Assembly (NCBI GenBank): GCA_964016885.1
Contig: OZ024741.1
Coordinates: 169,322,001 to 169,386,000, forward strand
Source: Eledone cirrhosa
Taxonomy: Eukaryota
DNA length: 64,000 nucleotides
Direction: 5' to 3'
Part shown: positions 2,406-63,652 of the stretch, one piece after another
Layout: every line of letters starts with the position of its first letter
How positions within the stretch are numbered: position 1 is the first letter of the stretch
The notes under the pieces: generated by a model
The model's database searches: none
Seen by the model: only the letters and a program-made list of their open reading frames with translations
Told to the model about the DNA's origin: nothing
Program-made: the position numbers and the translations under genes

Positions 2406-2894
2406 TTCCAGTTTTCCCTTTAGAGTTTTTATGTCAAATATATTTCTCTAGCCTTTTAAGTTGTGAAGCTCAATTTTTAACCATTTAAAAGTCACAATCT
2501 AATTTTTCCTTTTAACTCATCCAAACTCTCTATTTATGTACAACTTGCTGCATCATTATTTTCATTGTTGCTGCATCATTGTTTTCTGTTGTTTCCAAAT
2601 GTTATTGACAATGAATCTAGTTCCAAATATCTTAAAAGCTGCTAAACAATATTATTCTCACTTTTTGCTGCAAAATCCTAATTATAACTGTTTTAAAGAG
2701 CATTTTTCCACCAGTTTTAATAGTTGCAAAACAATTTCAAAGTTTTCTAAAGTATATTTGATGTAATCTAGAATACTATTTATATGTTTGGAATGTATTG
2801 CAGTCTGCAACTCTATCTATGTCCTTTTTTAGGGGGGGGGGGGTATTAGATATGCTTGTAAGTTTATATATACATATATATATACATATATGCA

Positions 2895-3205
2895 TGGAGG
2901 CACATGGCTTAGTGGTTAAAGCATTGGTCTTGCAATCGAAAGGTTGTGAGTTCAATTCTCAGACCGGGTGATGTGTTGTTTCATTGAGCAAGACACTTTA
3001 TTTCACATTACTCCAGTTTACTCAGCTGTAGAAATGCAAAGTGGTCGTGGATGTGCCATGGCAAAAAAGTACCCAGTCCACACTGTAAATGAGGTTGGTG
3101 TTAGGAAGGGCATCCAGCTGTAGAAATCAAGCCAGAATCAGTTCCCGTCCCACCCTTGCAAGCAGGGAAAAGCGGACGTAAAATGATGATGATGATGATG
3201 ATGAT
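2895..3205 (+). mobile_element. tRNA-derived CORE-like SINE with RTE-type 3' tail
   Basis: A-box TGGCTTAGTGG, B-box GAGTTCAATTC, CORE-like TTGAGCAAGACACTT, tail GGTTGGTGTTAGGAAGGGCATCCAGC...(GAT)n shared with the RTE LINEs. Confidence 0.8.
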
Positions 3206-4480: not shown

Positions 4481-4786
4481 ACAATACAACAGGAGGAAAC
4501 ATAATAGCACCACAGACGATGTTGCAGATGTGCAACAAAAGAACTTTGTTAGACTATATATGTGTTTGTGTCTATCTGTATTTTTGACCGTTGGTCAGTC
4601 AATGGTAAACATTGAGGACCGAATAAATTAACTGATATAAAAGATACAGAAGCGAAAACCAACCAAACAGTGAATGTGTTCTGTTATTAATTCTGGCAAT
4701 ATTATTACAACAATATGACCCTCCCTAAGTATAACAATATTTATTTCGACACACGATTTCATATCAAAAACCTATATATATATATA

Positions 4787-5548
4787 AATATAAATTCAGC
4801 GAGAATCGCATTTCGGCGGGTAGAAAGAGCGAAACATAACGCAAATTCAGAGTCATGCTGGCAAGCGCTCCATAGTTTAAAAACCAGAGCTATAAACATG
4901 TTATAAACACCATACAAACTTAGAAGGCGGTCAAAAAGGCATTAACCACCTAAGCCAAAAAACAAGTCAAGCTAAACAGGTCAGACAAAATAAATGATAA
5001 AATCATACATATATATATATACACATACACATATATATATAACACACCTGGACCCATTGGAATTGATGGTAAAATCCAAATACAGGGTTTCTATGACACC
5101 TAAATCAATAATACTGTCTGCTTAAAACCATAAGCTTTTGGTATAATAATCGAACAAGGAATATCACGTTATCAACAGGTATTTTGTTCTGCGCCAGTGC
5201 TGTGAATGATGTAGTGTTTTGTAAAAGCACATGAGTAAGTCACAAGGGGTAAAACCCCAGATTTTGGCAAATGAATTCAGTATGTGTAAATCATGCAAAA
5301 AATTGCATAAATAGCTCAAATCGAATAAGCACTCAACCGGGTAGTTTTTAAAATAAACTTATGCAATTAATCTGTCAATAGAATTATTAACAGGTTAATT
5401 GTAAGACTCGGGAGATTAATACAAATATAAATTCAGCGAGAATCGCATTTCGGCGGGTAGAAAAAGCGAAACGTAACGCAAATTCAGAGTCATGTTGGCA
5501 AGCGCTCCATAGTTTAAAAAACCAGAGCTATAAACATATGTTATAAAC

Positions 5549-5592: not shown

Positions 5593-5679
5593 AAATTAAG
5601 ATAATCAAAATTATGGGTGTCATGCCAGAAAGATATGCGCCATATCACCCGCGAAATAAGCTCTAAGATTGTATATATA

Positions 5680-6100
5680 TCAAGTAAGAATATTTTCGAA
5701 ACAGCGAGTGGGTTTGAAATTATTAGAAATGTAAGCTATCGCCGTATTTTGACTAAAGAAATTATTTAGCCTGATAGTCTTTAATTTCTTTAGTCAAAAT
5801 ACGGCGATAGCTTACATTTCTAATAATTTCAAACCCACTCGCTGTTTCGAAAATATTCTTACTTGACATTACAGTCGCTAAGTTTATAGCTTCTAATTTG
5901 AATGGAAAACGATGGGTGATGTGTTGGTGTAAATGGTAGCACAGTGGTCCGGATAATCAAAGATGTGGGTTCAACTCCCATGTACGTCGATACTCATCTT
6001 TTTCCATTTCTCCGAGGGTTCTTAACCCCACTATCAGGCTAAATAATTTATTTAATTTCTTTAGTCAAAATACGGCGATAGCTTACATTTCTAATAATTT
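5680..6100. mobile_element. (TA)n-embedded element: 85-bp-arm palindrome plus ~271-nt unit with terminal direct repeat
   Basis: Inverted arms 5680-5764 and 5782-5866; sequence at 5781 recurs at 6052-6100; related copy at 30816-31053. Confidence 0.75.
5918..5989 (+). tRNA. tRNA-like cloverleaf (pseudo-tRNA or Pol III head) inside a repeat unit
   Basis: Acceptor GATGTGT/GTACGTC, D arm GTGT..GCAC, loop CCGGATA, T arm GTGGG-TTCAACT-CCCAT, followed by TTTTT; lacks U33 and has several G-U pairs. Confidence 0.55.
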
Positions 6101-6237
6101 ATATATATATATATATATATATTCTAATACTATGATTGCATTTCATTAAATATTAAATTTATTTTATTGCAAATTTTCACAATGAAATGTACACTAAAGG
6201 TATTGTTAACATTTTAATTAACAGTCATATATCTGAA

Positions 6238-7793
6238 AGGCTTGTGAGAGCTATACAAGCCATGTATAAAGAAACAGTCAGCAAGGTTAGAATTAACAAC
6301 GAATATAGTGAAGAATTTTGGCGTAAAAGTTGGTGTTCATCAAGGCTCTGTCCTTAGCCCCCTCCTATTTATTATTGCCCTTCAGGCTATAACAGAGGAG
6401 TTCAAGAACGGCTGCCCATGGAAACTTCTATACGTAGATGATCTAACTCTCATAACTGAATCGATGGCTGAACTAGAGACAAATTCCAAACATGGAAGCA
6501 TGGCCTAGAATTAAAAGGCCTTAAAGTTAACTTGTCTAAGACTAAAGTTCTAGTATGTAGAAAGGAAAATAGGGCACAGGTCCCCTCTGAGAAATGGCCA
6601 TGCTCAGTGTGTAAGAAAGGAGTAGGCAGAAGTTCCATTGTATGTCCCAAATGCAAACTATGGGTACATAAAAGATGTAGTGGGATTACAGGTAAGCTAT
6701 CTAAGAACATAGATTTTATATGTAGCCGATGCTCAGGTGCAATAAGTAGCAAGTGCCCACAGGATACTAGCTCCTTCTATTGCCCAGATGGTTCTATAGA
6801 AATAGTGGACACCTTCCGTTACCTGGATGACAAAATCAGCAGTGGTGGAGGGTGCTCTGAAAGTACAGTAGCTAGAGTCAGAACGGGATGGAAAAAGTTG
6901 AGAGAGCTTATACCACTATTGCCCACTAAAGGTTTCTCTCTAAAAATGAAAGGCAGATTGAATGATGCCTGCATACGAACAGCAATGTTACATGGCAGTG
7001 AGACATGGACATTGTGTGCAGAGGATCTGCGCAGACTGGAGAGGAACAAAGCATGCATGCTCCATTGGATGTGTGATAGTAATATACGCGAACGGCAAAG
7101 CATAAATGAACTAGGTGAGAAATTAGGAATAAGAGGGATCAGATTCTGTTTACTTGAGAGAAGACTACATTGGTATGGTCACGTGATGCGCATGAAAGAC
7201 GACAGCTGTATAAAAAAGTGCAGGGCGATCAAAATTGATGGAAGTTATGGAGTAGGTAGACCCAAAAAAACCAGGGACAATTTGATAAATTCCGATCTTA
7301 CATACTTACACCTCTCTAAGACAATGTCACTGGACCGACATCTTTGGTGCTACGCAGTAATACAGATAACCTGCCTTGCCTATGTACAAAGCGAAACCTA
7401 CAGTCAGTAGGCACCTCTTAACCAAATATACACCCCCATCCCACTACCCCTACTCCACCCCCACTGCCACCAACACCACCCTTTCGATGTAAAGCTATGT
7501 TGGTACCACAACATTCAGTCCAAAATAAATGAGGTCGTGTAGGTGTCACAACAAAAAAACACACAGTCCACGCTGTAATGTGGCCATGTAGGTAACAAGT
7601 TAAAAACCTCCCAGTCCACACTGTAAACGTGGTTGGTGTTAGGAAGGGCATCCAGCCATAGAAAACCTGCCAGACAGTCCTATATGAGCGAGATATGGTC
7701 ACCCAACCAATCTTGCCTCAAGTGGGACAATTCCTGTTTAAACCCATGCTAGCATGGAAGATAGACATTAAATAATGATGATGATGATGATGA
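6238..7793 (+). mobile_element. 5'-truncated RTE-clade LINE (RT C-half with PHD-type finger, 3'UTR, (GAT)n)
   Basis: [34 protein letters not shown]; frameshifted. Confidence 0.92.
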
Positions 7794-12984: not shown

Positions 12985-15730
12985 TCTAGTGATAGAATAA
13001 TTAAGCTTAGATTAGTTGTAGGCAAGAGACTACTGACAATCATCTCTGCCTATGCTCCCCAGGCAGGCCTAGGTAAAGAAGAGAAAGACTGCTTTTACGA
13101 GCAACTTTTACAAACAGCCTCAATGACAGAGGACAGAGACATCCTTATGCTAGCAGGGGACTTCAATAGACATGTTGGACAGCTCCAGGATGGATACACT
13201 GGGGTACATGGTGGGCACGGTTACAGCTCAAGAAATGAAGGAGTGAGGCTTCTTGAATGTTGTGATACAAATGCACTAACCATTTACAACACTAAATTCC
13301 AGAAGCCTACAAACCACCTAATAACCTACAAATCGGGCGAACACATAAGCCAGATTGACTTCCTGCTAGTTAGACAGTGAGACAGACAGATGGTGTCAAA
13401 TACTAAGGCATACCCTGGGCATAGGTTAGTCATTAGTGACATCTCAGTAAGCATGAGAAAGAATGAGACATTACAGGAAGGTGTGGAAAAGGAAGGTCTG
13501 AAAGCTAAAAGACGTTTCATTAAAATATAAATTTAGCAAAGCCCTTCAAGACATGTATGACGAAAAAGAAGACGATTTAGAGTTGTATGACATAGATGAT
13601 AACTAGACTTTCTTACGTGACAACTTACTGCAGGCTACTGAAGAAACTTGTTGTTGGGCAGAGCTTCAACCAGATAGAGAGTGACCTGGTGGTGGAACGG
13701 CACAGTAGATAGGGCCAATAGAGACAAAAGACTGGCATGGAAGGTTTGGGAAAATGGTGGGAGTAGGGAAGGACACACAGCCGCTAAGAGAGAAGCTAGA
13801 CGTCAGGTGTACTTAGCACGCAGGGAGGCTGAGAGTAGGAGGTTTGCCAATGTTCTGTGACGGGAAGGTCAGAGATGTGCGGTGTGACGCATTGCAAGGC
13901 AGTGTGTCAGTGTAAATCAGGATGTTGTTGGAGATAAATGTGTCCAGAATGATGCCGGTGTACTTAGTGTCACGAATGATAAAAAAAAGGAGGTTTGGAA
14001 ATGTCACTCTGAGAGACTGATGAATGTGGAGAACAAATGAGACAGAGAGAAAATACCCCCAGTAGACCCAACAGAGGGACCAGCTATTGAGATTGACGAA
14101 TATAGGGTACAAGAGGCAATTAAGGAAATGAAGAATGGTAAGGCTGCTGGACCGTCAGGGATAGTTGCAGGCATCAGGAGAAGTAGGCATTAAACTGGTT
14201 GCACGCATCATTAATCACGTTATATATGGTGGTGTCATACCCAAAGACTGGTGCAGCAGTATTCTCATAAATTGCTACAAAGGTAAAGGGGATGCTCTAG
14301 AGAGGAGCAATTATAGGGGCTTAAAGCTGATGGATCAGGTTATGAAAGTGGCAGAGAGAATATTAGCACAACTGATTAGAGAAAGGGTCAAATTAGATGA
14401 GATGCAGTTTGGTTTTGTGCCCCGGAAAAGTACAACAGATGCCCTCTTCTTAGTGAGGCAACTGCAAGAGAAGTTCTTAGAGAAGAATAAGCCACTATAC
14501 TTAGCTTTTGTTGACCTAGAGAAGGCCTTTGATAGGGTACCCCGATCTGTCATCTGGTGGTCCCTAAGGAAACTAGGTGTAGAGGAATGGCTTGTGAGGA
14601 CAGTGCAAGCTATGTACAGAGGTGCTGTCAGTAAAGTGAGAGTAAGCATGGAGTTTAGTAAGGAATTCCAGATACAAGTAAGTGAACATTAGGGTTTGGT
14701 CCTTAGTCCGCTCTTGTTCATTATAGTCCTTAAGCCATAACAGAGGAGTTTAAGACTGGATGTTCATGGAAACTTCTATATGCTGATGATCTGGTTCTTA
14801 TAGCAGAATCAGTAGAGGAGCTAGAGAATAAATTCTGGCTATGGAAACAGCAGTTGGAAGCAAGAGGACTGAGAGTGAACATAGCTAAGACAAAAGTGTT
14901 GATAAGTAGAAGAGCGGACAATACTCCGATTCCATCAAGGAAATGGCCATGTTCAATATGTAGGAAAGGAACTGGCATAAATTCCATAAAATGTTCGCAA
15001 TGCAGATCTTGGGTACACAAGAGATGTAGTGGAATAGCAGGCAAACTAACAGGTAGGGAAAACTATGTATGCAGTAGATGTACAGGGAAAGTTGGCAGTA
15101 GTAATCGCAGTGATAGACACATTTTTCCAATGCAGGTGGGTTCTATAGAAGTGGTTGATAGCTTCCGGTACCTAGGTGATCAGATTAGCATGGGAGGGGG
15201 GTGTTCCAAGGCCATAGTATCTAGAATAAGGATGGGCTGGAAGAAGTTTAGGGAGCTGCTTCCTCTGTTGACAAAGAAGGGTTTCTCCCTGCGTACGAAA
15301 GGACAGTTATATGATGCCTGTGTGAGATGCGCGATGCTGCATGGTAGTGAGACATGGGTAGCAACAGCAGAGGATATGCGACTGCTGGAGAGAAATGAAG
15401 CAAGTATACTCCGTTGGATGTGCGTGAACAACTATGAATAGACGAGTTGAGAAAGAAACTGGGTATAAGATGGATAAGTTGTGGTGTGCCGGAGAGAAGG
15501 CTGAGATGGTATGGACATGTGATGCACATGGAGGATGACCGCTGGATAAAGAGGTGCCAAGAAATCCCAGTAGAAGGAAGACGCAGTAGAGGTAGACCTC
15601 AGATCGCTGAAACTCACCAAGGAGATGACAAAGGACCGTGACAAGTGGAGAGATGCTGAATAGGACCCGTCTAACCCTTGCAAGCAGGGAAAAGTGGACG
15701 TAAAATGATGATGATGATAATGATGATGAT
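12985..15730 (+). mobile_element. Degraded RTE-clade LINE, second subfamily (APE endonuclease, RT, PHD-type finger)
   Basis: AYAPQ, AGDFN, SQIDFLLVR, NYRGLKLM, FVDLEKAFDRVPR, LLYADD; several stops and frameshifts; (GAT)n tail. Confidence 0.92.
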
Positions 15731-16596: not shown

Positions 16597-16734
16597 AATA
16601 TTTAATATAGAAAAGGCTTCTACAGGACTGAAACTGTTTCATTTGAAGGAAAGTATAAGAAAAGGGCTTTCCTGATGATTTCCTTAGAATGAAACAGTTC
16701 TAGTCCTGTAGAAGCCATTTCTATATTAAATATT
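16597..16734 (+). ncRNA. Imperfect palindrome with degenerate hammerhead core
   Basis: agggct-ttc-CTGATGA-tttccttagaat-GAAAC-agttct-agtcct; inverted arms about 16597-16652 and 16679-16734. Confidence 0.5.
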
Positions 16735-17988: not shown

Positions 17989-18212
17989 ATCAAAAGATGG
18001 TTAAAGGAGTTCCATGTATTTTATTATGCGCATTTCAAAAACAAACATCATCATGCAATAATATTTGTGTTTTCATCAGATAAAACAGGAGAACATGATA
18101 TGAAGGCTAAAAACACTTGTGGATAGTGCAATTTTAAATCAACATATCATATATGTTGATTTAAAACTGCACTATCCACAAGTGTTTTTAGCCTTCATAT
18201 CATGTTCTCCTG

Positions 18213-18279
18213 TTTTATCTGATGAAAATACAAATATTATTGCATGATGATGTTTGTTTTTGAAATGCGCATAATAAAA
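18213..18279 (+). ncRNA. Type I hammerhead ribozyme motif, intact-looking
   Basis: ttttat-CTGATGA-long stem II-GAAA-TGCGCA-TA-ataaaa; self-complementary stem III; AUA cleavage triplet. Confidence 0.78.
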
Positions 18280-18311
18280 TACATGGAACTCCTTTAACCA
18301 TCTTTTGATCT

Positions 18312-18359: not shown

Positions 18360-18485
18360 AATAGGAAAAAGTATGACCCCGACGGCAGAGCTCAAGCCGT
18401 TTTGACGGCTATTTCTGGACGAGTCCAGAAATAGCCTTCGAAATTGCTTGAGCTCTGCCGTCGGGGTCATACTTTTTTCTATTTC
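18360..18485. repeat. Palindrome with ~60-bp arms in (TA)n
   Basis: GAAAAAGTATGACCCCGACGGCAGAGCTCAAGC...GCTTGAGCTCTGCCGTCGGGGTCATACTTTTT. Confidence 0.88.
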
Positions 18486-23891: not shown

Positions 23892-26164
23892 TCATCATCA
23901 TCATCATCATCATCAACGTTTAACGTCCGTGTTCCACGCTTGCATGGGTTTGGACGGGGGTAGTCCCACTTGAGGCAAGAGTGATTGTCTTGCTCGCATA
24001 GGACTGTCTGGCAGGTTTTCTACAGTTGGATGCCCTTCCTAACACCAACCACATTTACAGTGTGGGTCTGGGAGGTTTTTACCGTGTTGCCTACACGGCC
24101 ACATTACAGCGTGGACTGTGTGTTTTTTTGTCGTGACACCTACACGATCTCATTTGTTTCGGCCTCGATGGCGCGGCACCAACATAACTTTACATAGAAC
24201 GGGGTGGTGTGGATGGGGTGGGGGTGGTGGTGGTGGGACGGGGTGTATTTTGTTAGAGATGCCTACTGGCTGGAGTAGGTTTTACTATATATTTAGGTAA
24301 GGCGGGTCTTCTCTGTTACTGAGTACCGCCAAAGGTCTCGGTCCAGTGACATTGTCTTGGAGAGGTGTAAGTGTGTGATGTCGGAGTTTATCAGCTCGTC
24401 CCAGGTTTTTCTAGGTCTGCCTATTCCGTGACTACCGTCTATCTTTATTGCCCTGCACTTTGTTATACAGCTATCGACTTTCATGCGCATCACGTGTCCA
24501 TACCAACGTAGCCTTCTCTCGAGTAAACAACATCTGATCCCTCTTATCTCTAATTTTTTCCTTAGTTCGTTTATGCTTTGCCGTTCACGTATATTACTGT
24601 TACACATCCAGCGGAGCATGCAAGCTTCGTTCCTCTCTAGTCTGCGTATATCCTCTACACACAATGCCCAGGTCTCACTGCCATGCAGCATTGCTGTTCG
24701 TATGCAGGCATCGTATAACCTGCCTTTCATTTTTAGGGAGAACCCTTTAGCAGCTAATAGTGGTATAAGCTCTCTGAACTTTTTCCAACCAGTTCTGACT
24801 CTAGCTACAGTACTTTCAGAGCACCCTCCCCCACTGCTGATTTTATCGCCCAGATAACGGAAGCTGTCCACTATTTCTATAGAACCCTCTGCGCAATTGA
24901 AAGAGCTAGTATTTTGTGGGCACTTGCTGCTACTTATTGCACCAGAGCACCGGCCACATGTAAAATCTATGTTCTTAGTTAGCTTACCTGTGATCCCACT
25001 ACATCTTTTATGCACCCATACTTTGCATTTAGGACATAAAATGGAGTTTCTACCTACGCCTTTCCTACACACCGAGCACGACCATTTCCCAGAAGGGACC
25101 GCCGCCTTGTTTTCTTTCCTACAAACTAGTACTTTGGTCTTAGCCAGGTTAATTTTAAGTCCTTTTGACTCTAGGCCGTGCTTCCATGTTTGGAATTTCT
25201 TCTCTAGCTCGGCCATTGATTCCGCTATGAGTGTCAGGTCGTCTGCGTATAGGAGTTCCCATGGGCAGCCTGTCTTGAACTCCTCTGTTATAGCCTGAAG
25301 GGCAATAATAAATAGTAGTGGGCTGAGAACAGAGCCCTGATGGACGCCAACTTTTACACTAAACTCTTCACTATATTCGTTGTTAATTCTAACCTTGCTG
25401 ACTGTTTCTTTATACATGGCTTGTATAGCCCTCACAAGCCATTCGTCAACACCTAGTTTTCTAAGAGCCTACCAGATAATGGAGCGGGGGACTCTGTCGA
25501 AGGCTTTCTCCAAGTCGACAAAAGCTAAGTAGAGGGGTTTACCTTTAGCTAGGTACTTCTCCTGTAGTTGTCGTACTATGAAAAGAGCGTCTGTGGTACT
25601 TTTGCCTGACACAAACCCGAACTGCATTTCATCTAGGTCAATTCTCTCTCTGATTAGTTGCGCTATTACTTTTTCCGTGACCTTCATGACCTGGTCGATT
25701 AATTTAATGCCTCTATAGTTACTCCTATCTAGGGCGTCTCCTTTACCCTTATAACAGTTAACGATGATGCTGCTATGCCAGTCCTTCGGAACAACCCCAT
25801 TCTGTACGACTTGGTTAACTATGCGGGTGACCATGGTGTGTCCCACCGTGCCAGATGCCTTCAGCATCTCAGCAACTATTTCCGAAGGCCCAGCCGCCTT
25901 ACCCGTCTTCATATCCTTGATTGCCTTACTTATTATACTCCCCTCGACTAACACTGCTGGCCCCTCTATTGGGTCGATATGGGGGAGACTGTCTTTCTCC
26001 CATTTATTCTCCTCATTTAGTAGCCTTTCATAGTGACACTTCCAAGCTACCTTCTTATCAGCGTCGGTGATGGCAAGTGTGCCATCGTTGTTTAGTACAC
26101 ACTTCTCCCCGACAATATCACGGTTTTCCTTGACGCATTGCCTAGCAATCCTGAACACCTCACG

Positions 26165-26267: not shown

Positions 26268-26684
26268 TGTAGGAGGTGAGTTTTATTGTAGTACAATAAA
26301 GCAATGCAGATATCGGATAATAAGCACTCTACAGTTTGTAGGACTGGAGTATACATAATATATAAGAACAAAAGATGGTTAAAAGAGTTCCATGTATTTT
26401 ATTATGCGCATTTCAAAAACAAATATCATCATGCAATAATATTTGTGTTTTCATCAGATAAAACATGAAGACATGATATGAAGGTTAAAAAACACTTGTG
26501 GATAGTTCAGTTTTCAATCAACACATGTTGATTTAAAACTGAACTATCCACAAGTGTTTTTTAACCTTCATATCATGTCTTCATGTTTTATCTGATGAAA
26601 ACACAAATATTATTGCATGATGATATTTGTTTTTGAAATGCGCATAATAAAATACATGGAACTCTTTTAACCATCTTTTGTTCT

Positions 26685-26693
<9 letters not shown>
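26268..26693. mobile_element. Palindromic Penelope-like relic with two hammerheads (copy 2)
   Basis: Same leader; palindrome 26356-26693; hammerheads at 26397-26463 (-) and 26586-26652 (+). Confidence 0.8.
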
Positions 26694-26719
<26 letters not shown>

Positions 26720-26723
<4 letters not shown>

Positions 26724-26934
26724 AAAAGAGAAAACACAGGTAAGCATTAAAAAAAGGATTTTATCCAGGTATTTACGACCGTTTCATTGGTAAGTGCAAC
26801 CTTATATTGCTATACTGCAAATAGCAGCCACTCGATAATAACTGTTATTCACCTCCAAATTTTCAAAATAATACATTATTATACCTGGATAAAATCCTTT
26901 TTTTTAATGCTTACCTGTGTTTTCTCTTTTATTG
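26720..26934. repeat. Inverted repeat (~52-bp arms) with a 3' half hammerhead
   Basis: Arms about 26720-26772 and 26881-26934; minus-strand GAAAC-GGTC-GTA adjoins the left arm. Confidence 0.7.
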
Positions 26935-27068
26935 TTTATACTCCAAGATTGAACGGGATTTACTAACCAGATTCTTGCAAACTTGTGGAGTTACCTCTAA
27001 CCGTACGTTGGAAATTGTCCAAGAAACTGGTTATCTTAACCACGAACTGGATTACAATAAGCATTTTC

Positions 27069-27112: not shown

Positions 27113-29845
27113 TCATCATCATCATCATCGTTTAACGTCCATCTTCCATGCTAGCATGGGTCTGGACGGGAATTGTCCCACTTGAGGCAAGATTGGTTGT
27201 CTTGCTCAGGACTGTCTGGCGGGTTTTCTACAGCTGGATGCCCTTCCTAACACCAACCACGTTTACAGTGTGGACTGGAAGGTTTTTACTGTGTTACCTA
27301 CACGGCCACATTACAGCGTAGACTGTGTGTTTTTTTTTTGTCGTGACACCTACACGACCTCATTTATTTAGGACTGGATTTTGTGGTACCAACATAGCTT
27401 TACATTGAAAGGGGTGGTATAGATGGCGGTGGGGGTAGGGGTAGTGGGACGGGGGTGTATTTTGGTTAAGAGGTGCCTACTGACTAGGTTTTGCTTTGTA
27501 CTCAGGCAAGGCGGGTCTTCTGTATTACTACGTAGTGCCAAAGATCTCGGTCCAGTGACATTGTCTTGGAGAGATGTGTGTGTGGTTGGATTTTATCAAG
27601 TCGTCCCAGGTTTTTCTGGGTCTGCCTACTCCGTAGCTACCGCCTATTTTGATCGCCCTGCACTTTTTTATACAGCTGTCATCTTTCATGTGCATCATGT
27701 GACCATACGAACGTAGTCTTCTCTCGAGTAAACAGCATCTGATCCCTCTTATTCCTAATTTCTCACTTAGTTCATTTATGCTTTGCCGTTCGCGTATATT
27801 ACTATTACACATCCAATGAAGCATGCAAGCTTCGTTCCTCTCCAGTCTGCGTAGATCCTCTGCACACAAGGTCCATGTCTCACTGCCATGTAACATCGCT
27901 GTTCATATGCAGGCATCATACAGCCTGCCTTTTATTTTTAGAGAGAAACCTTTAGCGGCCAATAGTGGTATAAGCTCTCTGAACTTTTTCCATTCCGTTC
28001 AGTCTCTAGCTACAGTACTTTCGGAGCACCCTCCACCCCTGCTGATTTTGTCACCCAGGTAACGGAAGGTGTCCACTATTTCTATAGAACTATCTGGGCA
28101 ATGGAATGAGCTAGTATTCTGTGGGCATTTGCTGCTACTTATTGCCCCAGAGCACCGGCCACATATAAAATCTATATTCTTAGTTAGCTTACCTGTGATC
28201 CCACTACATCTTTTATGCACCCATACTTTGCATTTGGGACATAAAATGGAGTTTCTGCCTACCCCTTTCCTACACACTGAGCATGGCCATTTCCCAGATG
28301 GGACCAGTGCCCTATTCTCCTTCCTACATATTAGGACTTTAGTCTTAGACAAGTTAACTTTAAGGCCTTTTGATTCTAGGCCGTGCTTCCATGTTTGGAA
28401 TTTCTTCTCTAGTTCAGCCATTGATTCAGCTATGAGCGTTAGATCATCTGCGTATAGAAGTTCCCATGGGCAGGCAGTCTTGAACTCCTCCGTTATAGCT
28501 TGGTGGGCGATAATAAATAGGAGGGGGCTAAGGACTGAGCCCTGATGAACACCAACTTTTACACTAAACTCTTCACTATATTCGTTGTTAATTCTAACCT
28601 TGCTGACTGTTTCTTTATACATGGCTTTTATAGCTCTCACAAGCCATTCATCTATAGCTAGTTTTCTAAGAGCCCACCAGATAATGGAGCGGGGGATTAT
28701 GTCAAAGGCTTTCTCCAGGTCTACAAAAGCTAAGTAGAGGGGTTTACTTTTAGCTAGGTACTTCTCCTGTAATTGTCGTACAATGAAAAGAGCGTCTGTG
28801 GTACTTTTACCTGACACAAACCCAAACTGCATTTCATCTAGATCAATTCGCTCTCTGATTAGTTGCGCTATTACTTTTTCTGTGACCTTCATGACCTGGT
28901 CAATTAATTTAATGCCTCTATAGTTTCCCCTATCTAGGGCATCCCATTTACCCTTGTAGCAGTTAATGATTATGCTGCTACGCCAGTCCTTTGGTACGAA
29001 CCAATTCTGTATAACTTGGTTTACTATCCGGGTGACCATAGTGTGTCCCACCGTTTCAGATGCTTTCAGCATTTCAGCAATTATTTCCGAAGGCCCAGCC
29101 GTCTTGCCCATCTTCATATCTTTGATTTCTTTACTTATTATACTACCTTCAACTTGCACTGCTGGTCCCTCTATTGGATCGATGTGAGGGAGGCTGTCTT
29201 TCTCCCATTTATTCTCCTCATTTAGTAGCCTTTCGTAGTGAAACTTCCAAGCTACCTTCTTATCAGCGCCAGTGATGGCAAGTACACCATCATCATTACG
29301 GACACACTTCTCCCAGACAATATCACGGTTCTCCTTGACACATTGTCTAGCAATCCTGAACACCTCACGTTTTTGGTCCTCGCGTTGTAGAACATGCTTG
29401 AACTTTCTTTCCTCTGCTTCCCTTCTTGCGAAGTACTCTTGTCTCCTAGCTTCCCTCCTGGCCACTTGATAGTCTTCTCTACTTCCCCCATCCCACCATA
29501 CTTTCCAAGCCTGCTTTTTGGCCTTGATCGACTCCTCCACCTTACTGTTCCAGCACCAAGTTACTCTCCTCCTACCTGTCGCCTTCAGCAGGTTAGCTTT
29601 CAGGAATTCCCACTGTTCCTTTATATTGTACGACTCTAATTGTTCTTCCTTACTGTCAAAAGCATCAAGTAATATGCTTTTAAATTTATTACTGGCTGTG
29701 GGGTCCTTTAACTTCCATATTTTTCTCCTAAGGATAGTCCTCCTCTGTTGTCGAATACGTCTCGTCCTGACTATGAGGTCGTTAACTATGAGGCTATGTT
29801 GGGAGGTGCATTCTTCATGGGGGAGGGATTTGAAATTATGCTAAG
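27110..29845 (-). mobile_element. RTE LINE, 5'-truncated (end of APE, RT, PHD-type finger)
   Basis: 513-aa ORF 27999-29540, a stop, then the C-terminal part; 3'UTR and (GAT)n. Confidence 0.95.
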
Positions 29846-30815: not shown

Positions 30816-31053
30816 TTAGACTAAATAAATTTCTAGCCTGATAGTGGGGTTTATAACCCTCGGAGAAATGGAAAAAGATGAGTGTTGCCGTAACTCATCT
30901 TTTTCCATTTCTCCGAGGGTTATAAACCCCACTATCAGGCTAGAAATTTATTTAGTCTAAAATACGGTGAAAGCTTATAATTTCTAATTTCTAATTTCAA
31001 ACTCGTGCACCGTTTCAAAAACATACTTACATGTTTACGTTTATAATTTGCTT
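30816..31053. mobile_element. Second copy of the tRNA-like unit family, with its own ~68-bp-arm palindrome
   Basis: ACTCATCTTTTTCCATTTCTCCGAGGGTT...CCCCACTATCAGGCTA shared with 5992-6043; palindrome 30816-30960. Confidence 0.8.
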
Positions 31054-31073
31054 GTATATATATATATATATAT

Positions 31074-31214
31074 ATATGAAAGACGTAAAATAAGAAAATT
31101 ATGAAAATTAACTTACTTACTAAAATTTCACACAAACTAATTAGTTTCTGAAAGGGAATAAACATGGTTTCTTTCGGAAACCATGTTTATTCCCTTATTT
31201 TACGTCTTTCATAT
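31074..31214. repeat. Nested inverted repeats beside (TA)n with a GAAAC-CAT-GTT half motif
   Basis: ATATGAAAGACGTAAAATAAG / CTTATTTTACGTCTTTCATAT outer arms; inner GGGAATAAACATGGTTTC hairpin. Confidence 0.7.
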
Positions 31215-31323
31215 AATTGTTCTGCATCCCCTTGCATTGAACCACAAAGTTACTAAGACAAAACCTATATATTTGCTAGCATAGGTATGCATCTGTATAT
31301 ATATGTTGGTAGATATACTAATT

Positions 31324-36391: not shown

Positions 36392-36394
36392 CAA

Positions 36395-36780
36395 TCTGAG
36401 TTTTTCGAATATTTATAATATTCGATTCGTTTGCAATTATGCAAACAGTGTCTTAAGCCATGTCAGTAGAATAACCCCGCCATTCTTACTCTTGTGTTGG
36501 CATACAAACAGAATGGCAGTGTGCTAATATGCAAATCAGGCTAATCAGTTACTGAATATTCCAGAAAATATCATATATTTTCACTAGCTCTGACAGTTGG
36601 CAGGTAAACAGTATATGGTACTGATGAAGGGGAATCACCCAGAAACATTAGTGTCTGCCATTCTGTTTGTATGCCAACACAAGAGCAAGAATGATGGAGT
36701 CATTCTACTGACATGGCTTAAGAGGCTGTTTGCATAATTGCAAACGAATCAAATATTATTAATATTCAAAAACATCAGAT
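36395..36780. mobile_element. Penelope-like relic: ~130-bp inverted arms around a hammerhead
   Basis: Arms about 36395-36530 and 36645-36780. Confidence 0.75.
36615..36661 (+). ncRNA. Compact type I hammerhead ribozyme motif, intact-looking
   Basis: atggta-CTGATGA-a-ggg-gaatca-ccc-a-GAAA-CATTAGTG-TC-tgccat; GUC cleavage triplet. Confidence 0.8.
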
Positions 36781-37132
36781 TTACATTTCTTGTATTCAGC
36801 CATGAAGAACGATAAAACTTATTTGTTATATATATCATTCTACTGCAAAGTGGTCGTGGAGGTGCCATGGCAAAAAAGCACCCAGCCACACTGTAAAAGG
36901 GACGTGTAGACGCCACGGAAAAAAAAGCACCCAGCACTCACTGTAAATGAGGTTGGTGTTAGGAAGGGCATCCAGCTGTAGAAATCAAGCCAGAATCAGT
37001 TCCTGTATGAGCAAGACAAGGTCACCCGACTGGACACTGCCCACAACAGGACAATCCATCTAACCCATGCTAGCGTGGAAGAACGGACGTAAAACGGTGA
37101 TGATGATGTTAATGATGATGATATATATATAT

Positions 37133-48002: not shown

Positions 48003-48524
48003 CCTTCCTTTGAAACTCTTTGAGATAGTACCTAGGGCTCCTATGACAATCGGGACAAACTTGATCTCATGACAGTTCCAAATCCTTTTTAAATCCCACT
48101 TTAAATCCTAGTATCGGTTAATTTTCTCCCTCTCCTTTTCTTGCACTCTCGTGTCAAATGGGCAGGCTACATCTACAATCAGGCATGATCTTTTTTCCTT
48201 GTCCAAAACCACCAGGTCAGGCCCATTGTGTTCTAATTTCTTGTCTGTCTGTATCCTAAAATCCCATAGCACCTTCACTTGATCATTTTCTATCACCGAC
48301 TCTGGCTTATGCTCATACCACTTCTCAGAATGAGGTAAATTGTTTAGTTTGCATAGATGCCAGTGGATCACCTTTCCTCTCATATCATGTCTCCAGCCTT
48401 TATAGTGAGTCTGGGCTAGGGGTTTACACTCGGATACAATGTGAGCCACAGTTTCCTCTCTCCCTCCACAGATCCTACACAGTGAGCTAGCCTCCTTTAT
48501 TATTATTATTATTATTATCATTAT

Positions 48525-51500
48525 TGTTCTTTGAGTTTCAGTCATTGATGTTATTTAACTGGAAAGTTTGTTGAAATAAATATCAAGCCACTACCTGCAG
48601 CCTCAGATATTCAGGACGTATCGGGGGGTTCTTGCTGTTCCCAGCAAGCATGCCTTTTGAAGTGTTCCAAAAAGCAGGGCTGGACTAATCTTCTTTAACC
48701 ATCCATGGAAACTCTTTGAGATAGTACCTAGTGCACCTATGACAATCAGGACATCTCCAACTCATACCACTTCACAGAATGTGGTAAATTGTTTACTTTG
48801 CATAGGTGCCAGTGGATCACCCTGCCTATCACATCATGTGTCCAACCTTTATAATGAGTCTGGAGTAGGTGTTTACACTTGGATGCAATGTGAACCACAG
48901 TCTCCTCTCTCTCTCCACAGATCCTACACAGTGAGCTAGCTTCCTCTTTGTCAATATGGTGTTTCACCGACTTCGTTCTGAGGGCTTGCTCTTGCGCAGC
49001 CATTAGCATTCCTTCTGTAGTTTTTTTAAGGTCTCCTCTTTTTAACCAGTTCCATGTATGTGTATCTCTAAATTCCGTTTTCTTAAAGAAGGTCCTATGA
49101 AGGGATTTTTCATGAAGGTTGCTCTTCTTCCTTCTTGTTATTTCCTCCTTGGACATCCCCTGGTCTATTGTCCTCTCCTTCAGTACAATTTTGAGCATTG
49201 GCTCCCTACTGTCAGCCACTTGTGCAGGTTATTTTTCTCCATCTGAACACAGTCCTCTATGCTGATAAGACCTCTTCCACCTTCAGATCTCTTTAAGTAG
49301 AGTCCATCAACATCACTCCTCTTGTGGAACATGTTGTAGATAGTCATTAGCTTCCTAGTCTTCCTATCCATTTCTTTTTGTTCAGCAACATTCCATTTCA
49401 GAATTCCCGCACTGTACCTAATAATAGACACAGCTCGGGAATTTACTGCACTTATGACATTCCTACTGTTCAGATGTGACTTTAATACGCTCCTTACTCT
49501 CCTTATGTATTCAGATCTTATCAATTCCTTCGTTTTTTTGTTCTCGATGTCATCTGCCTCCAGAACACCTAAATATTTGTATCCTTCTTCAGTGTCAATT
49601 TCCTTTATCATCACACCTGTTGGTACCTGGATTCAGTTGCTTCTGTTCAATTTACCCCTCTTCCTCACTAGGACTTCACACTTATTAATATCAAATTACA
49701 TACATATATCATTGCTGAAAATACGGACAGTGTCAACAAGTACATCCAACTCCTTCTCACCCTTCCCAAAGAGTTTAAGATCGTCCATGAAGAGGAGGTG
49801 GTTGATGGTAAGCTCTCCTCTTCCCCACTTGTATCCTGCCCTCACTTTTCACAATATGAAAGGACAGGGGTATCAGGGCAAGGAGAAACAACAAAGGGGA
49901 CAAACTATCTCCCTGGAAGATACATCTCTTGATCTTCACGCCTCCCAAGGATTCGCCACCCGATGTTAACTCTGTTTCCCAGGACTTCATACTTTTGCTT
50001 AATAGCTGTCTGATGTTATCTGCCACCTTGAAGATCTCTAGGCTTTTGGTTATCCAAGAATGAGGTACCATGTCGAATGCCTTTTTGTAATCTATCCATC
50101 CCATGGCAAGACCAGTGTGCCTCCTCTTGCAATTCCTCATTACCATCTTATCAATAAGTAACTGGTCTTTTGTACCACGGGACTTCTTTCGGCATCCTTT
50201 CTGTTCATCCGGTAACAAGTTGTTTATGTGGAGGTGATGCTAGATTTCCTCAAACACAATGCTTGTTAACAGTTTCCTTATTACGGACAGACATGTGATA
50301 AGCCTATAGTTGGTAACATCATTACCCTTGATTCGGTCTTTCATTACCAGAACAGTGGTACCTTTTATCAACCACTCTGGTACCTCACCCAACATCAAGC
50401 AGTCATTGAACATGGTTGTCAGTTTCGGGTGGAGGGTTGTTATGTTTTTAATCCAATACCCCTGCACATCATCTGGGCCTGGTGATTTCCAGTTGGTTAG
50501 TTTTTTGGCCTGCCCTTTAAGAGTTTCAACTGTGATACTCAAATCAGTTTGTTGGTGTGCTTGTTCACTAATCTCCTTTTGTACTGTCTTAATCCACACT
50601 GCCTGATCATTATGTTCAACATTTTGTTCCGATATTCCTCTCCAGAATGACTTAGTCTGTTCTGCCTCAGTGATCAAGTCGTTGCCTCTTTCTTTCCCTT
50701 CAAGCTGTCCAAACAACATCTTCTGGTTGTTACAATGTGTTGCTTCAGTTCCTCTATGATAATATTTAGCTTTTTCCTCCTAGTTTTGTACTTTATTTCC
50801 AGTCTATTTTTAGTGTCTATGTTTTGTAGTGTCCCATTGAGTAGGGACTCAAGCTTTCCAATGTCTTTTCTCATTTCCTTGATTTGACCATTCAGTCATT
50901 TCTTCCACCAAGGTTCTGATCTTTCTTGTTTGTTGTTTCCTCTCGTTTTTATGCCAAGTAATTTGCTGTTGCTTTGAGGATATTTTTGCATTGGTGAAGG
51001 TTCCTCACCTCAAGGTATGGGATGACTTTGTTTACATTAGCTTTTGTTTCTTTTAACTTTTTCCTGCCTACAAATCTTAGGTTCATAGGTTTCCCACTAT
51101 CATTGTTCATTTCATCTACCACTAAGTTCAGGATATCAACCAAATCTTGTTCTAGCCCGTCAGGATTCATTTCCTCAATCTTTGTTCCAGATGTTATTTA
51201 TTTCAGCATTCAAATCATTGTCTGCTTCAGATGCTTATTAGTTCTCTCAACCTCTTCACCTTCATTTCCCACTGGCTCGTTTGCCTGACATACTCCACTC
51301 TCCATTTCCAACTTAATCTCTCTGTTCAGTTCCTCCAGTTCCAACTCGCTTATCCATCCATTAGTTCTTATTACCCGAGCCTGCCCGACCAATTTTTGTT
51401 CATCTAATTTAAATAGACCAATCTCGTTCCAGATGTTATGCATCCGTTTCCTATAGCCTTTTTCCATGGGGTTACTCTTCAGGTAACATTGCATAACAGT

Positions 51501-53117: not shown

Positions 53118-56100
53118 ACTCTTTGAGTCTCAGTCATTGATGTTAGTTAACTGGAAAGTTTGTTGAGATGAATATCAAGCCACTACCTGCAGCCTCAGAT
53201 ATTCAGGACGTATCGGAGGGTTCTTGCTGTTCCCAGCAAGCATGCCTTTTGAAGCGTTCCAAAAAGCGTGAAGGGGCCAATTTTCTTTAACCATCCCTGG
53301 AAACTTTTTGAGATAGTCCCTAGTGCGCCTATGACAATCGGGATCACTTTGACTTCATGGCAGTTCCAAATCCTTTTTACCTCCCACTTTAAGTCCTGGT
53401 ATCGGTTAATTTTCTCCCTCTCCTTCTCTTGCACTCTCGTGTCGAATGGGCAGGCCACATCCACAATCAGGCACGATCTTTTTTCTTTGTCCAAAACCAC
53501 CAGGTCAGGTCTATTGTGTTCCAGTTTCTTGTCCGTCTGTATCCTAAAATCCCACAGCACCTTCACCTGATCGTTTTCTATCAACGACTCTGGCTTATGC
53601 TCATACCACTTCTCAGAATGTGGTAAATTGTTTACTTTGCATAGGTGCCAGTGGATCACCCTGCCCATCACATCATGTCTCCAGCCCTTATAGTGAGTCT
53701 GGGCTAGGTGTTTACACTCGGATACAATGTGAGCCACAGTCTCCTCTCTCTCTCCACAGATCCTAAACAGTGGGCTAGCCTCCTCCTTGTAAATGTGGTG
53801 TTTCAACCACTTCGTTTTGAGGGCCTGCTCCTGCGCAGCCATTAACATTCCTTCTGTAGCCTTTTTAAGGTCTCCTCTTTTCAACCAGTTCCATGTCTGT
53901 GGATCTCTAAATTCAGTTTTCTCAAAGAAGGTACTATGAAGGGATTTTTCCTGAAGGCTGCTCTTTCTCCTTGATGTTATTTCCTCCTTGGACATCCCCT
54001 GGCCTATTGTCCCCTCCTTCAGTACAGTTCTGAGCATTGGCTCCTTACTATCAGTCACGTATTTGTGTAGGTTGTTTTTCTCCATCTGAACACAGTCCTC
54101 TATGCTGATAAGACCTCTTCCACCCTCAGATCTCCTTAAGTAGAGTCTATCGACATCACTCCTCTTGTGGAACATATTGTAGATAGTCAATAGCTTCCTA
54201 GTCTTCCTATCCATTTCTTTTTGTTCAGCAACATTCCATCTCAGAATTCCCGCACTGTACCTAATAATAGACACAGCTCGGGAATTTACTGCACTTATGG
54301 CATTCCTACTGTTCAGATGTGACTTTAATACGCTCCTTACTCTCCGAAGGTATTCAGTTCTGATCAATTCCTTCATTTTTTTGTTCTTGATGTCATCAGC
54401 CTCCAGAACGCCCAAATACTTGTATCCTTCCTCAGAGTCAATTTCTTTTATCATCTCACCTGTTGGTATCTGGATTCCGTTACTTCTGCTCAGCTTACCC
54501 CTCCTCATCACAATGACTCCACACTTACTAATACCAAATTGCATACATATATCATTGCTGAAAATACGGACAGTGTCAACAAGCACATCCAACTCCTTCT
54601 CACTCTTCCCGAAGAGCTTAAGATCGTCCATGAAGAGGAGGTGATTGATGGTAAGCCCTCCCTTTCCCAACCTGTATCCTGCTCTCACTTTTCGCAGTAC
54701 ACTGGTCAGGGGCATCAGGGCAAGGACAAACAACAGAGGGGACAGACTATCTCCCTGGAAGATACCTCTCTTGATCTTCACGCTTCCCAAGGATTCTCCA
54801 GTTGATGTTAACTCTGTTTCCCAGGACTTCATACTTTTTCCCAACAACTGCCTGATGTTATCTGCCACCTTGAAGATCTCCAGGCTTTTGGTGATCCAAG
54901 AATGAGGCACCATGTCAAATGCCTTTTTGTAGTCTATCCATCCCATGGCAAGACCAGTGTGTCTCCTCTTGCAATTCCTCATTACCATCTTATCAATAAG
55001 TAACTGGTCCTTTGTACCACGTGACTTCTTTCGGCATCCTTTCTGTTCGTCCGGTAACAAGTTGTTTGTGTGGAGGTGATGCTAGATTTCCTCAGACATA
55101 ATGCTTGTTAACAGTTTCCACATTACGGACAGACATGTGATAGGTCTATAGTTGGTAACATCATTACCCTTGATTCGGTCTTTCATTATCAGAACTGTGG
55201 TACCTTTTGTCAACCACTCTGGTACCTCACCTGACATCAAGCAATCATTGAACATGGTTGTCAGTTTCGGATGGAGGGATGTTATGTTTTTAATCCAATA
55301 CCCCTGCATACCATCTGGGCCAGGTGATTTCCAGTTGGTTAGTTTTTTGGCCTGCCCCTTAAGAGTTTCAACTGTGATACTCAAATCAGTTTGTTGGCGT
55401 GCCTGTTCACTGATCTCCTTCTGTACTGTCTCAATCCACACTGCCTGGTCATTATGTTTAACATCCTGCTCCCATATTCCTCTCCAGAATGTTTTAGTTT
55501 GTTCCGCCTCAGGGTTCAAGTCGTTGCCTCTTTCTTTCCCTTCAAGCTGTCCAAACAGCATCTTCTGGTTGTTGTCGAACATGCGGTTCTGTCTATACTG
55601 GCTGACTCTGTTCTCGTATCGCCTGATTTTTGCACTCTTTACTACGATGCGTTGCTTCAGTTCCTCTATGATAATATTTAGCTTTATCCTCCTAGTTTTG
55701 TACTTTATTTCCAGTCTATTTTTAGTGTCTATGTTTTTTAGTGTCCCATTCAGTAGGGACTCAAGCTTTCCAATGTCATTTCTCATTTCCCTGATTTGAC
55801 CACTCAGTCGTTTCTTCCACCAAGGCTCTGCTCTTTCTTGTCTGTTGTTTCCTCTCGCTTTTATACCAAGTAGTTTCCTCACCGTATTTGCTGTTGCTTT
55901 GAGGATATTGTTGCACTGGTGAAGGCTCCTCGCCTCAAGGTATGGGATGACTTTGTTTACCTTAGCTGTTGTTTCTTTTAACTTTTTCCTGCCTACAAAT
56001 CTTAGGTTCATAGGTCTCCCACTATCATTGTTCAATTCATCTACCACTAAGTTTAGGATATCTACCAAATCTTGTCCTAGCCCGTCAGCATTCATCTCCT

Positions 56101-62581: not shown

Positions 62582-62842
62582 GAAGAAGAAGAAGATACCA
62601 CACAACCTTTAATATTATCAGAACATCAGAACATAATATACAATACAGCCTTTAATACTACCACAGCATGGTAATATACCACACAAACCCTTGTGGGGTG
62701 GCTGAATTGGTAGATTGTTAGACAAAATGCCATTCAAATATTTGTTCTGGTTCTTTACATCCTGAGTTCAAATCCTGCTGAGGTCAACTTTCCCTTTCAT
62801 CCCTCTCCAGGGTCAATCAGCCAAGTACTAGGGTTGATTTAA

Positions 62843-63273: not shown

Positions 63274-63652
63274 TTAATCAACTTTGTCCTTCCTTTAAAT
63301 TTGCTGGCCTTGTGCCTAAATTAGAAATCCATATTACCACAGAACCTACTAATATGTCATGCAATTCACCCCAGACTATTTCATACACAAGACAAAAAAA
63401 ACCTTTGCAGAATAGGTTTCATTAGCTTCTGCACTTTAATATTCTCCATTGATATAGATTGTTATTAAATAAAATCTACTACTCTGTTAATTATCATTAT
63501 CAGTTAAGACTCACTACTCTACTTATTAACACTATAAGATACCACCTACTACTCTGTAAATACCAGCTTCCCTAGATGAATAATTGACTAGCAGCCGGAA
63601 ACTGATTATATCTGTGTGTGTGTGCACAAGTGTGTGTATGTGAATGTATATA

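Follow-up and report, generated by a model that had tools for sequence, protein, structure and literature searches.

The 271-nt unit described here, which carries an internal tRNA-derived module, is probably a non-autonomous and ribozyme-free passenger that is mobilised by Penelope-like elements (PLEs) and copied in trans by an endonuclease-bearing PLE. It was found in the window, i.e., the whole 64-kb stretch of Eledone cirrhosa DNA that was analysed. The fold-back and the permutation of the unit represent the standard PLE footprint, and the unusual part is the passenger. What is worth following is the combination of a tRNA module and a clamp in a unit that has no ribozyme; the family is known here from two copies, and this module from the one full copy.

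Structure of the first copy

The unit of copy 1 is 271 nt long and is followed by an exact repeat of its first 50 nt. In the initial annotation, it was noted that the sequence at 5781 recurs at 6052. The direct repeat and its spacing of 271 were confirmed, while its limits were corrected to an exact 50 nt, with 5780-5829 being identical to 6051-6100 (50/50). The unit is preceded by an inverted, 5'-truncated copy that extends 37 nt further at its own 3' end. This fold-back consists of two segments, i.e., 5680-5764, which is the exact reverse complement of 5782-5866 (85/85), and 5759-5778, which is the reverse complement of 6030-6049 (20/20). The features of copy 1 and its flanks are as follows:

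5673-5680, no strand: left target, a short TA repeat, as judged from the sequence and the junction context
5680-5716, minus strand: 37-nt 3' extension (the tail), present in the inverted arm only and equal to 5830-5866; its last base may be derived from the target
5680-5778, minus strand: inverted 5'-truncated copy, equal to 6030-6049 joined to 5782-5866, without the 9-nt duplicate
5780-5829, plus strand: 5'-truncated upstream copy, which forms a 50-nt pseudo-LTR identical to 6051-6100
5830-6100, plus strand: a complete 271-nt unit when one counts backwards from the right-hand 3' end; the same circle as 5781-6051
5801-5845, plus strand: stem D (5801-5807 with 5839-5845) and its AU/AC-rich loop, within which the right-hand 3' end (= 5829) lies
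5900-5917, plus strand: 5' strand of the clamp stem, purine-rich (14/17 bases in 5900-5916)
5918-5989, plus strand: tRNA-derived module with the A box at 5925-5936 and the B box at 5969-5977, degenerate as a tRNA
5992-6009, plus strand: 3' strand of the clamp stem with the sole plus-strand run of at least four T in the unit (T5, 5999-6003); 0/18 positions differ in copy 2
6016-6028, plus strand: stem B hairpin; the stem is the same in copy 2 and two loop bases differ
6037-6066, plus strand: stem C, which spans the unit junction and has the 9-nt duplicate (6043-6051) as part of its loop
6101-6122, no strand: right target, (TA)n, from the sequence

The BLAST alignment showed that the inverted arm crosses the unit junction without the 9 nt that the main body carries at 6043-6051, which are a near-tandem duplicate of the 9 nt that follow them. 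The loop of the palindrome was previously described as the reverse complement of the end of the unit. The arm does cross the junction, but the loop matches the reverse complement of 6030-6043 and not that of the extreme end of the unit. This arrangement is not due to chance, because a BLAST search of 5601-6150 against the window recovered the 50-nt repeat with an E value of 1e-20 and the palindrome with one of 7e-80. Both outer ends of copy 1 meet TA repeats. Since its main arm comprises 321 continuous nt, including the 51 nt between the end of the tail and the tRNA, a template longer than one unit was needed. Non-LTR retrozymes have tandem units of approximately 150-400 nt; in total, copy 1 amounts to 1.18 units of 271 nt, and no full dimer was found within the 64-kb window.

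None of the 93 frames of at least 90 aa listed in the window overlaps the element, and neither an empty target site nor paralogous flanks of copy 1 were found within the window. The same BLAST search of 5601-6150 returned only the second copy, TA repeats and weak matches with E values of at least 1.2, which aligns well with the earlier observation that a LINE tail is absent.

The second copy and the age of the insertions

Copy 2 is located at 30816-31033 and is approximately 87% identical to copy 1 over the aligned bases (17/135 of which differ, with eight gap columns). It is also folded back, with other break points:

30816-30892, minus strand: inverted arm of copy 2, equal to approximately 5983 through the junction to approximately 5797; its 9 nt of the tRNA 3' end match at 6/9
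30893-31033, plus strand: main arm of copy 2, equal to 5992 through the junction to 5865; the homology stops where the tail of copy 1 ends

The arms of copy 2 are exact over 68 nt, the centre of the fold-back is at the 3' end of the tRNA and the 9-nt duplicate is absent. Its tRNA content is restricted to 9 nt of the tRNA end, six of which match. In the clamp strand there are no changes at any of the 18 positions, and this strand and the six bases are the support that copy 2 gives to the tRNA module. As read from the alignment, four of the five stem changes keep the pairing, including one two-sided change in stem D; taken as covariation, this change is not significant with two sequences (240/500). 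The divergence between the copies is similar in stems (5/38) and in unpaired positions (12/79). An extension of the homology past the end of the main arm scored no better than shuffles (1266/5000). Both 5' ends of copy 2 are found no more than 7 nt from the 3' end of the tRNA; with n = 2 ends, this position may signify stalling at a structure or occasional cleavage.

The arms and repeats are exact in both copies (50/50, 85/85, 20/20 and 68/68), while 17 of the 135 aligned bases differ between them; judging from these sequences, the copies therefore appear to be two recent insertions from diverged lineages. Only these two copies were detected within the window using BLAST and nhmmer. The searches of prokaryotic collections, in which a blank says little, gave 15 records in the phage collection, all of which had an E value of at least 0.3 (102 records with a best E of 0.2 for the tRNA part alone), no match in the plasmid collection and 0 matches in each of two exact-pattern scans of the GTDB genomes.

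Next to copy 2, 21 nt (31034-31054) separate the end of the homology from a TA run, and their resemblance to the neighbouring element is not clear (248/5000). That element (31073-31215), directly to the right of copy 2, is small and MITE-like; its terminal inverted repeats are perfect over 22 nt, and a 20-nt hairpin lies inside it.

The PLE insertion footprint

PLE insertions were described as partial tandems truncated at the 5' end, next to which lies an inverted copy that is also 5'-truncated, with a tail of 30-40 bp that is often present at one end only (PMC8557442). All four hallmarks, i.e., the partial tandem, the 5' inverted truncated copy, the one-sided tail and the TA target, were found at the locus of copy 1. 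The partial tandem that forms a pseudo-LTR is present in one of the two copies, and the inverted 5'-truncated copy with joined 5' ends in both. When the plus strand is taken as the sense strand, the truncated 5' ends are joined to each other in both copies, and the 3' ends point towards TA repeats. These repeats directly abut three of the four outer ends, the fourth being 21 nt away, and there is no clear target duplication. The tail is 37 nt long in copy 1; the ends of copy 2 differ by approximately 68 nt, which is outside the 30-40-bp expectation. Together with the hammerhead fold-backs discussed below, the inverted 5'-truncated copy, the partial tandem, the 37-nt tail, the TA targets and the existence of a second copy with other break points support the PLE mobilisation that was proposed in the initial annotation.

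The four outer ends map to three positions, i.e., approximately 5797, 5829 and 5865/5866 (twice). The shorter 3' end of copy 1 lies in the loop of stem D, just before an AC-rich stretch, and the longer one coincides with the end of the copy 2 homology; the end at approximately 5797 fits neither of the inferred start sites. According to the experiments reported in PMC11167929, purified PLE protein cuts and extends both strands of AT-rich DNA and starts at two internal RNA sites in an AC-rich stem-loop, the interval between which corresponds to the tail. Priming by microhomology between the target and the template was considered and set aside, as the opposite is reported in the same paper.

Among the 93 open frames of at least 90 aa in the window, none had a GIY-YIG match that would indicate a partner PLE. 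Based on the TA targets and the lack of a canonical hammerhead, Naiad-type PLEs are the likeliest partner class; (TA)n targets and the lack of a canonical hammerhead are reported for Naiad PLEs in PMC8557442. TA-targeting Naiad and Hydra families from Octopus are described in the supplement of that paper, and the supplement of PMC13282606 gives a PLE content of 6.83% in 190 families for the O. vulgaris assembly. None of five short motifs of the element occurred in the Naiad, Chlamys and Hydra consensus files, in which line breaks may hide matches. Five motifs likewise gave no match in the supplements of PMC13282606 and PMC8967140, which appear to consist of tables and not of sequences. When inspected by eye, five cephalopod Naiads and Hydra-1_Obim have at most a terminal TTGA before TA in common with the element at their 3' ends.

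Further evidence comes from the other fold-backs. There are 18 local inverted repeats in the window, and four fold-back loci match the type I hammerhead descriptor: 16672 (weakly), 18219/18079, 26592/26457 and 36621. These four carry a short palindromic stem III, as is listed for PLE ends in File S2 of PMC8557442, and five of their eight outer ends abut TA-rich sequence as judged by eye. The same layout in four hammerhead fold-backs indicates that this genome has PLE activity of this type and that such fold-backs are a normal outcome of it.

The tRNA-like module and its clamp

The tRNA-like part at 5918-5989 that was recognised in the initial annotation was recovered by Rfam (tRNA, 37.6 bits with a gathering threshold of 29 and an E value of 2.5e-4 over the whole window) and by ARAGORN, which called 5917-5990 as tRNA-Ser(GGA). 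The T5 that was said to follow it begins 9 nt past its end, at 5999-6003, and lies inside a longer stem (5900-5917/5992-6009) that the annotation omitted. The A and B boxes are intact and are 32 nt apart. They form the sole pair in the window that matches a strict A-box/B-box pattern; the pattern missed the head of an ordinary SINE at 2905, though both boxes are present there. The central position of the tRNA, in place of the 5' end, was also pointed out earlier. Indeed, none of the four arms starts at the tRNA, but whether it is central is decided by the point at which the circle is opened, and the unit reads as a head plus a body when it is counted from the promoter.

A functional tRNA-Ser gene has a long variable arm, U33, a purine at position 37 and intact stems. 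Because the variable loop of the tRNA-like part is only 4 nt long, C33 and T37 are present, the anticodon stem has a G-A mismatch and the acceptor stem contains three G-U pairs, its sequence is not that of a credible tRNA gene and should not yield a working tRNA. Tools that search for tRNAs will count such copies as tRNA genes, as in the case of the ARAGORN call. The tRNA-like part folds no better than shuffles (115/200), and the cloverleaf is not the minimum-energy fold.

The clamp is formed by 5900-5917, which pairs with 5992-6009 at 17 of the 18 positions and extends the acceptor stem beyond a 3-nt bulge. Its energy of -19.6 kcal/mol was equalled by 3/5000 shuffles, and its pair probabilities range from 0.67 to 1.0. 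Elsewhere in the window, 129 of the 12,774 positions pair as well in the same geometry; the top 40 are mostly microsatellites or other palindromes. The T5 lies inside the clamp and the pairing runs 6 nt past it, so that an RNA which uses the clamp would have to be longer than a transcript that is terminated at T5.

On the plus strand, the 58 drawn stem positions comprise 46 Watson-Crick pairs, 10 G-U pairs, no A-C pairs and two other pairs, a polarity count that is biased as the stems were drawn on this strand allowing G-U. This pairing bias agrees with the sense of the tRNA. The circular fold has an energy of -52.3 kcal/mol on the plus strand and -43.9 kcal/mol on the minus strand. In the computed fold, the unit forms a circle that pairs with itself and is closed by stem C together with the clamp. 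Taken as a whole, the unit does not fold better than shuffled sequences (30/200).

Ribozymes, circular templates and tRNA processing

No hammerhead was found with up to two core mismatches on either strand of the circularised unit, as had been noted before, nor was any found with the full descriptor that matched the four control loci in the window. The Rfam ribozymes, including the HDV-like, twister, pistol, hatchet and hairpin families, had no match to an E value of 10 in a scan in which motifs spanning the junction by more than approximately 100 nt were not presented as one piece. A hammerhead-like reading of the minus strand at approximately 6005-6040 (CTGA, a stem and GAAA) was rejected, since it fails the descriptor at two mismatches and lies on the strand that is disfavoured by the G-U pairs. 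The term retrozyme-like that was used in the initial annotation does not apply, as the defining ribozyme is absent, and its suggestion that another ribozyme may define the ends found no backing in Rfam. The processing of the tRNA-like part was offered there as the other possible source of the ends. RNase P and Z need an unpaired leader and trailer. Processing by these enzymes is disfavoured, because the leader and the trailer are paired at 17 of the 18 positions and the copies read through the predicted cut sites: both sites are read through in copy 1, and the inverted arm of copy 2 extends 7 nt into the acceptor strand.

Previously, a tandem or circular template was considered to be implied by the junctions. 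A template longer than one unit is needed, as the 321 continuous nt show, but a circular RNA, which is compatible with the data, is not required because tandem read-through explains the same junctions. It is unlikely that the element is a retrozyme, either ribozyme-free or with a cryptic ribozyme, whose tandem transcripts would be cut once per unit by a ribozyme or by a host nuclease acting on the tRNA-like fold, ligated to a circle of 262-271 nt and reverse-transcribed by a PLE. This explanation has the PLE integration step in common with the one that we prefer, and differs in the template. Animal retrozymes are reported to measure 150-300 bp (PMC7761336), a range that includes the unit, RtcB is reported to circularise animal retrozyme RNAs (PMC7229834), three arms read through the unit junction and the self-paired circle closed by stem C and the clamp would suit such a template. 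However, neither strand has a hammerhead and no Rfam ribozyme was matched to E 10, the same junctions are explained by tandem read-through and the 9-nt duplicate is present in only one arm of copy 1, which means that the arms were not cleanly derived from one circle. A specific form of a ribozyme-free retrozyme, in which the clamped tRNA mimic replaces the hammerhead and the module serves as promoter, processing site and ligation splint, is decidedly doubtful. In that scheme, a host nuclease would cut each unit once in the tRNA-like fold, the clamp and acceptor stems would hold the ends, a tRNA ligase would seal a unit-length circle with the promoter module restored and the PLE enzyme would copy the circle.

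Proposed mechanism and source of the template

For the preferred explanation, i.e., a passenger copied in trans by a PLE, we propose that an RNA of plus polarity and longer than one unit would be made from tandem copies. The PLE protein would cut both strands of a TA-rich target and prime reverse transcription at each end. Reverse transcription would start inside the RNA, in and just after the loop of stem D, at sites that are 37 nt apart, which would produce the one-sided tail. Two cDNAs would stop early and be joined at their truncated ends to give the fold-back, and the longer cDNA would pass one unit, thereby creating the 50-nt pseudo-LTR. New full templates would be launched only by insertions that retain more than one unit. 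The clamp would keep the tRNA-like part paired on both sides and should shield it from RNase P and Z.

The intact A and B boxes point to Pol III. On balance, we lean towards transcription by Pol III that begins at the tRNA module, passes the weak T5 and continues into the following unit, a route predicted from sequence to which Pol II read-through or a circle would be the alternatives; Pol II read-through of tandem copies is the usual PLE route and the other source of a template. With a T5 directly after the tRNA, many Pol III transcripts should be stopped. In yeast, T4-5 tracts were found to be weak terminators that adjacent structure strengthens (10.1101/2021.08.27.457903), and thus read-through is plausible and not assured. 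A transcript that starts at the tRNA, passes the first T5 and ends at the next T5 would be terminally redundant. Similar terminal redundancy was described for Cassandra, the transcripts of which begin in one 5S copy and stop in the following one (PMC10886601), and in schistosome repeats the upstream copy must transcribe the next one (PMC6765202). To yield copy 1, such an RNA would need a second read-through or a 5' template jump.

Two further arguments were considered. The unit body contains ten T3 runs and no T4, and 47/5000 shuffles were as extreme; this avoidance lends weak support to Pol III, and as proof of Pol III elongation it is weakened by the comparable segments of the window, 17 of 139 of which are also free of T4. 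A conditional terminator, in which only the clamp of the second unit would stop Pol III, was not supported as the short nascent RNA also folds a hairpin beside T5 and the probability of the inner clamp is near 0 in the long nascent RNA.

Alternative origins of the insertions

An ordinary tRNA-headed SINE or a tRNA pseudogene that was later duplicated and inverted by DNA repair or template switching at TA repeats is very unlikely. The initial annotation contrasted the element with an ordinary SINE, the copies of which all begin at the tRNA 5' end with target duplications; copy 2 does not begin there and no target duplication is visible. Counted from the promoter, the unit does resemble a tRNA head with a body, TA repeats are unstable and the window holds 18 local inverted repeats, yet both independent copies are folded back with joined 5' ends and neither starts at the tRNA. 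Moreover, the unit carries along the 51 nt that precede the tRNA, which pair with the trailer, a simple-repeat tail is missing and the ordinary SINE at 2893-3195 is absent from the 18 fold-backs. The latter SINE has a 5' tRNA-like head (Rfam 31.7 bits) and an ATG-repeat tail, and its body occurs in many partial copies in the window. It is highly improbable that the element is a TRIM remnant or a tandem form with a tRNA-bearing LTR of the Helenus type that was moved by an LTR retrotransposon. A purine-rich 17-mer lies directly 5' of a 120-nt TG...CA stretch (5917-6036) that holds the tRNA, and Helenus LTRs, which have tRNA-like A and B boxes, were found in bivalves and can form tandem arrays (PMC10886601). 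The tRNA, however, lies outside the repeated 50 nt, the TG and CA boundaries coincide with none of the eight arm ends, no primer-binding site starting with TGG follows the CA, and there is neither a second LTR nor a target duplication of 4-5 bp; furthermore, a fold-back is not the product of an integrase. The likeness of the purine tract and the TG...CA stretch at 5917-6036 to the PPT-LTR layout of tRNA-bearing TRIMs could be due to chance or could be a trace of origin; a TRIM is a possible origin of the module and not of the insertions.

The chance of a DNA-level element, i.e., a Helitron/Helentron, a MITE or a DIRS-type element with a captured tRNA, is extremely small. Such elements typically have TA targets and inverted repeats, copy 1 starts with TC after an A at its left end, and the two strands of the clamp could pass for short inverted termini on either side of the tRNA. 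Against this, the break points vary between copies and arms, which leaves no fixed termini, and the centre of the fold-back shifts from the junction in copy 1 to the tRNA 3' end in copy 2. An artefact of the assembly or the library, i.e., a fold-back chimera, is hardly credible. The exactness of the arms would be expected from one, but the same layout recurs in the diverged second copy, the 9-nt deletion distinguishes the arm from the main body and other families share the layout with a divergence of their own.

Comparison with known systems

Of the systems compared, the Naiad-clade PLEs share with the element the partial tandem or pseudo-LTR, the inverted 5'-truncated copy, the one-sided 30-40-bp tail, the (TA)n target and the lack of a canonical hammerhead (PMC8557442). 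Unlike these PLEs, which are 3.4-4.4 kb long, the element is 271 nt long, has no ORF, carries a tRNA module and showed no similarity to the published consensus ends. The non-autonomous Chlamys elements such as MRC1 described in the same paper are also short non-coding PLE passengers with pseudo-LTRs and head-to-tail copies; in contrast, they are algal, generally resemble the 3' end of their autonomous partner and are described there without a tRNA module. The animal non-LTR retrozymes, as presented in PMC7229834, PMC7761336 and 10.64898/2026.07.22.740005, have tandem units of 150-300 bp without an ORF and PLEs as their proposed partner, but they are defined by a type I hammerhead in each unit, which the element does not have. 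The word "tRNA" had no occurrence in the search listing for the last of these papers.

A Pol III promoter inside a tandem unit, the upstream copy of which transcribes the next, is also known from Sm-alpha and Sj-alpha (reviewed in PMC6765202). The predicted A and B boxes would give the element such an internal promoter, while the active hammerhead of these repeats is absent from it; conversely, that review does not describe a fold-back, tail, clamp or PLE partner for them. The TRIMp3 elements (Cassandra, Helenus and Ajax) likewise have a small-RNA-derived Pol III promoter in a non-autonomous non-SINE element, but are reported to possess true LTRs, a primer-binding site, a polypurine tract and 4-5-bp duplications and to use the enzymes of LTR retrotransposons (PMC10886601). 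Of the Helenus/TRIMp3 characters, only the PPT-like tract and the TG...CA stretch were found in the element. The tRNA-derived SINEs in SINEBase (PMC3531059) are also short and interspersed, with tRNA A and B boxes and a degenerate cloverleaf. For a canonical SINE, at least 100 copies and an identity of at least 60% to a tRNA over 60 nt are expected there; two copies of the element are present in the 64 kb. By comparison, the head of the element is not at the 5' end of its insertions (the tRNA 5' end is the starting point of 0/4 arms), copy 1 is a partial tandem, the ends vary, and neither the simple-repeat tail of a canonical, non-tandem SINE nor a LINE-derived 3' end was found. In its layout the element resembles a non-autonomous PLE, for which the MRC1-type Chlamys elements and the animal retrozymes are precedents. 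It is neither a retrozyme nor an Sm-alpha-type repeat, as it has no hammerhead, nor is it a canonical SINE or a Helenus TRIM. A tRNA-bearing PLE passenger without a ribozyme was not found to be described in the full-text literature as judged by titles and the beginnings of abstracts, with Repbase, Dfam and subscription journals being outside this scope; the element may already be catalogued as an unclassified SINE.

The trans-mobilisation of short non-coding RNAs by PLEs has been argued mainly from co-occurrence and shared hammerheads. The element has the whole PLE footprint including the tail, but neither a ribozyme nor any sequence that is visibly derived from a PLE; this suggests that the PLE enzyme can be recruited by RNA structure alone. 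If it is driven by Pol III, it would be the PLE counterpart of the LINE-driven SINEs and the LTR-driven TRIMp3. Being 271 nt long and represented by two diverged young lineages, it would offer a compact substrate for studying how a PLE reverse transcriptase recognises its template and forms tails and inversions, and possibly a small natural passenger of this poorly understood copying machine.

Other repeats in the window

The window is AT-rich and laden with repeats, with many microsatellites and broken frames of non-LTR retrotransposons that have reverse transcriptase, PHD and endonuclease domains. Two of the hammerhead loci, 17989-18309 and 26350-26699, are near-perfect fold-backs of one family (97.8% and 98.3%) with TA-rich ends. 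The type I hammerhead pattern found in each of their arms combines a stem I of 8 bp with a palindromic stem III that has no loop, and the two loci are likely to be 5'-truncated PLE ends. The fold-back at 36393-36781 has one hammerhead pattern, at 36621, and the similarity of its inverted arm starts at approximately the predicted cleavage site. Its outer end has TTGA before TA, like the end of the copy 1 tail and the published Octopus Naiad ends, which may be due to chance. The long palindromes beside TA-rich sequence at 16597-16734, 18360-18483, 26714-26940 and 62833-63282, of which the first has a weak hammerhead pattern and the others none, may be MITE or PLE remnants.

Just upstream of copy 1, a 130-nt element occurs in two copies (4782-4908 and 5419-5548) that are 637 nt apart and 94.6% identical; both are TA-bounded, no other copy was found in the window and the pair is possibly a partial tandem. 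Two copies of a non-LTR retrotransposon, which we take to be R4/Dong-like, are located near TTA repeats at 53195-56623 and 48111-50779. The former has two long frames of 513 and 628 aa that are split by a single stop, and looks young. Additionally, a LINE family in which a PHD finger follows the reverse transcriptase, presumably RTE-like, is represented by fragments at 6472-7410, 14165-15441, 24293-26164 and 27999-29840.
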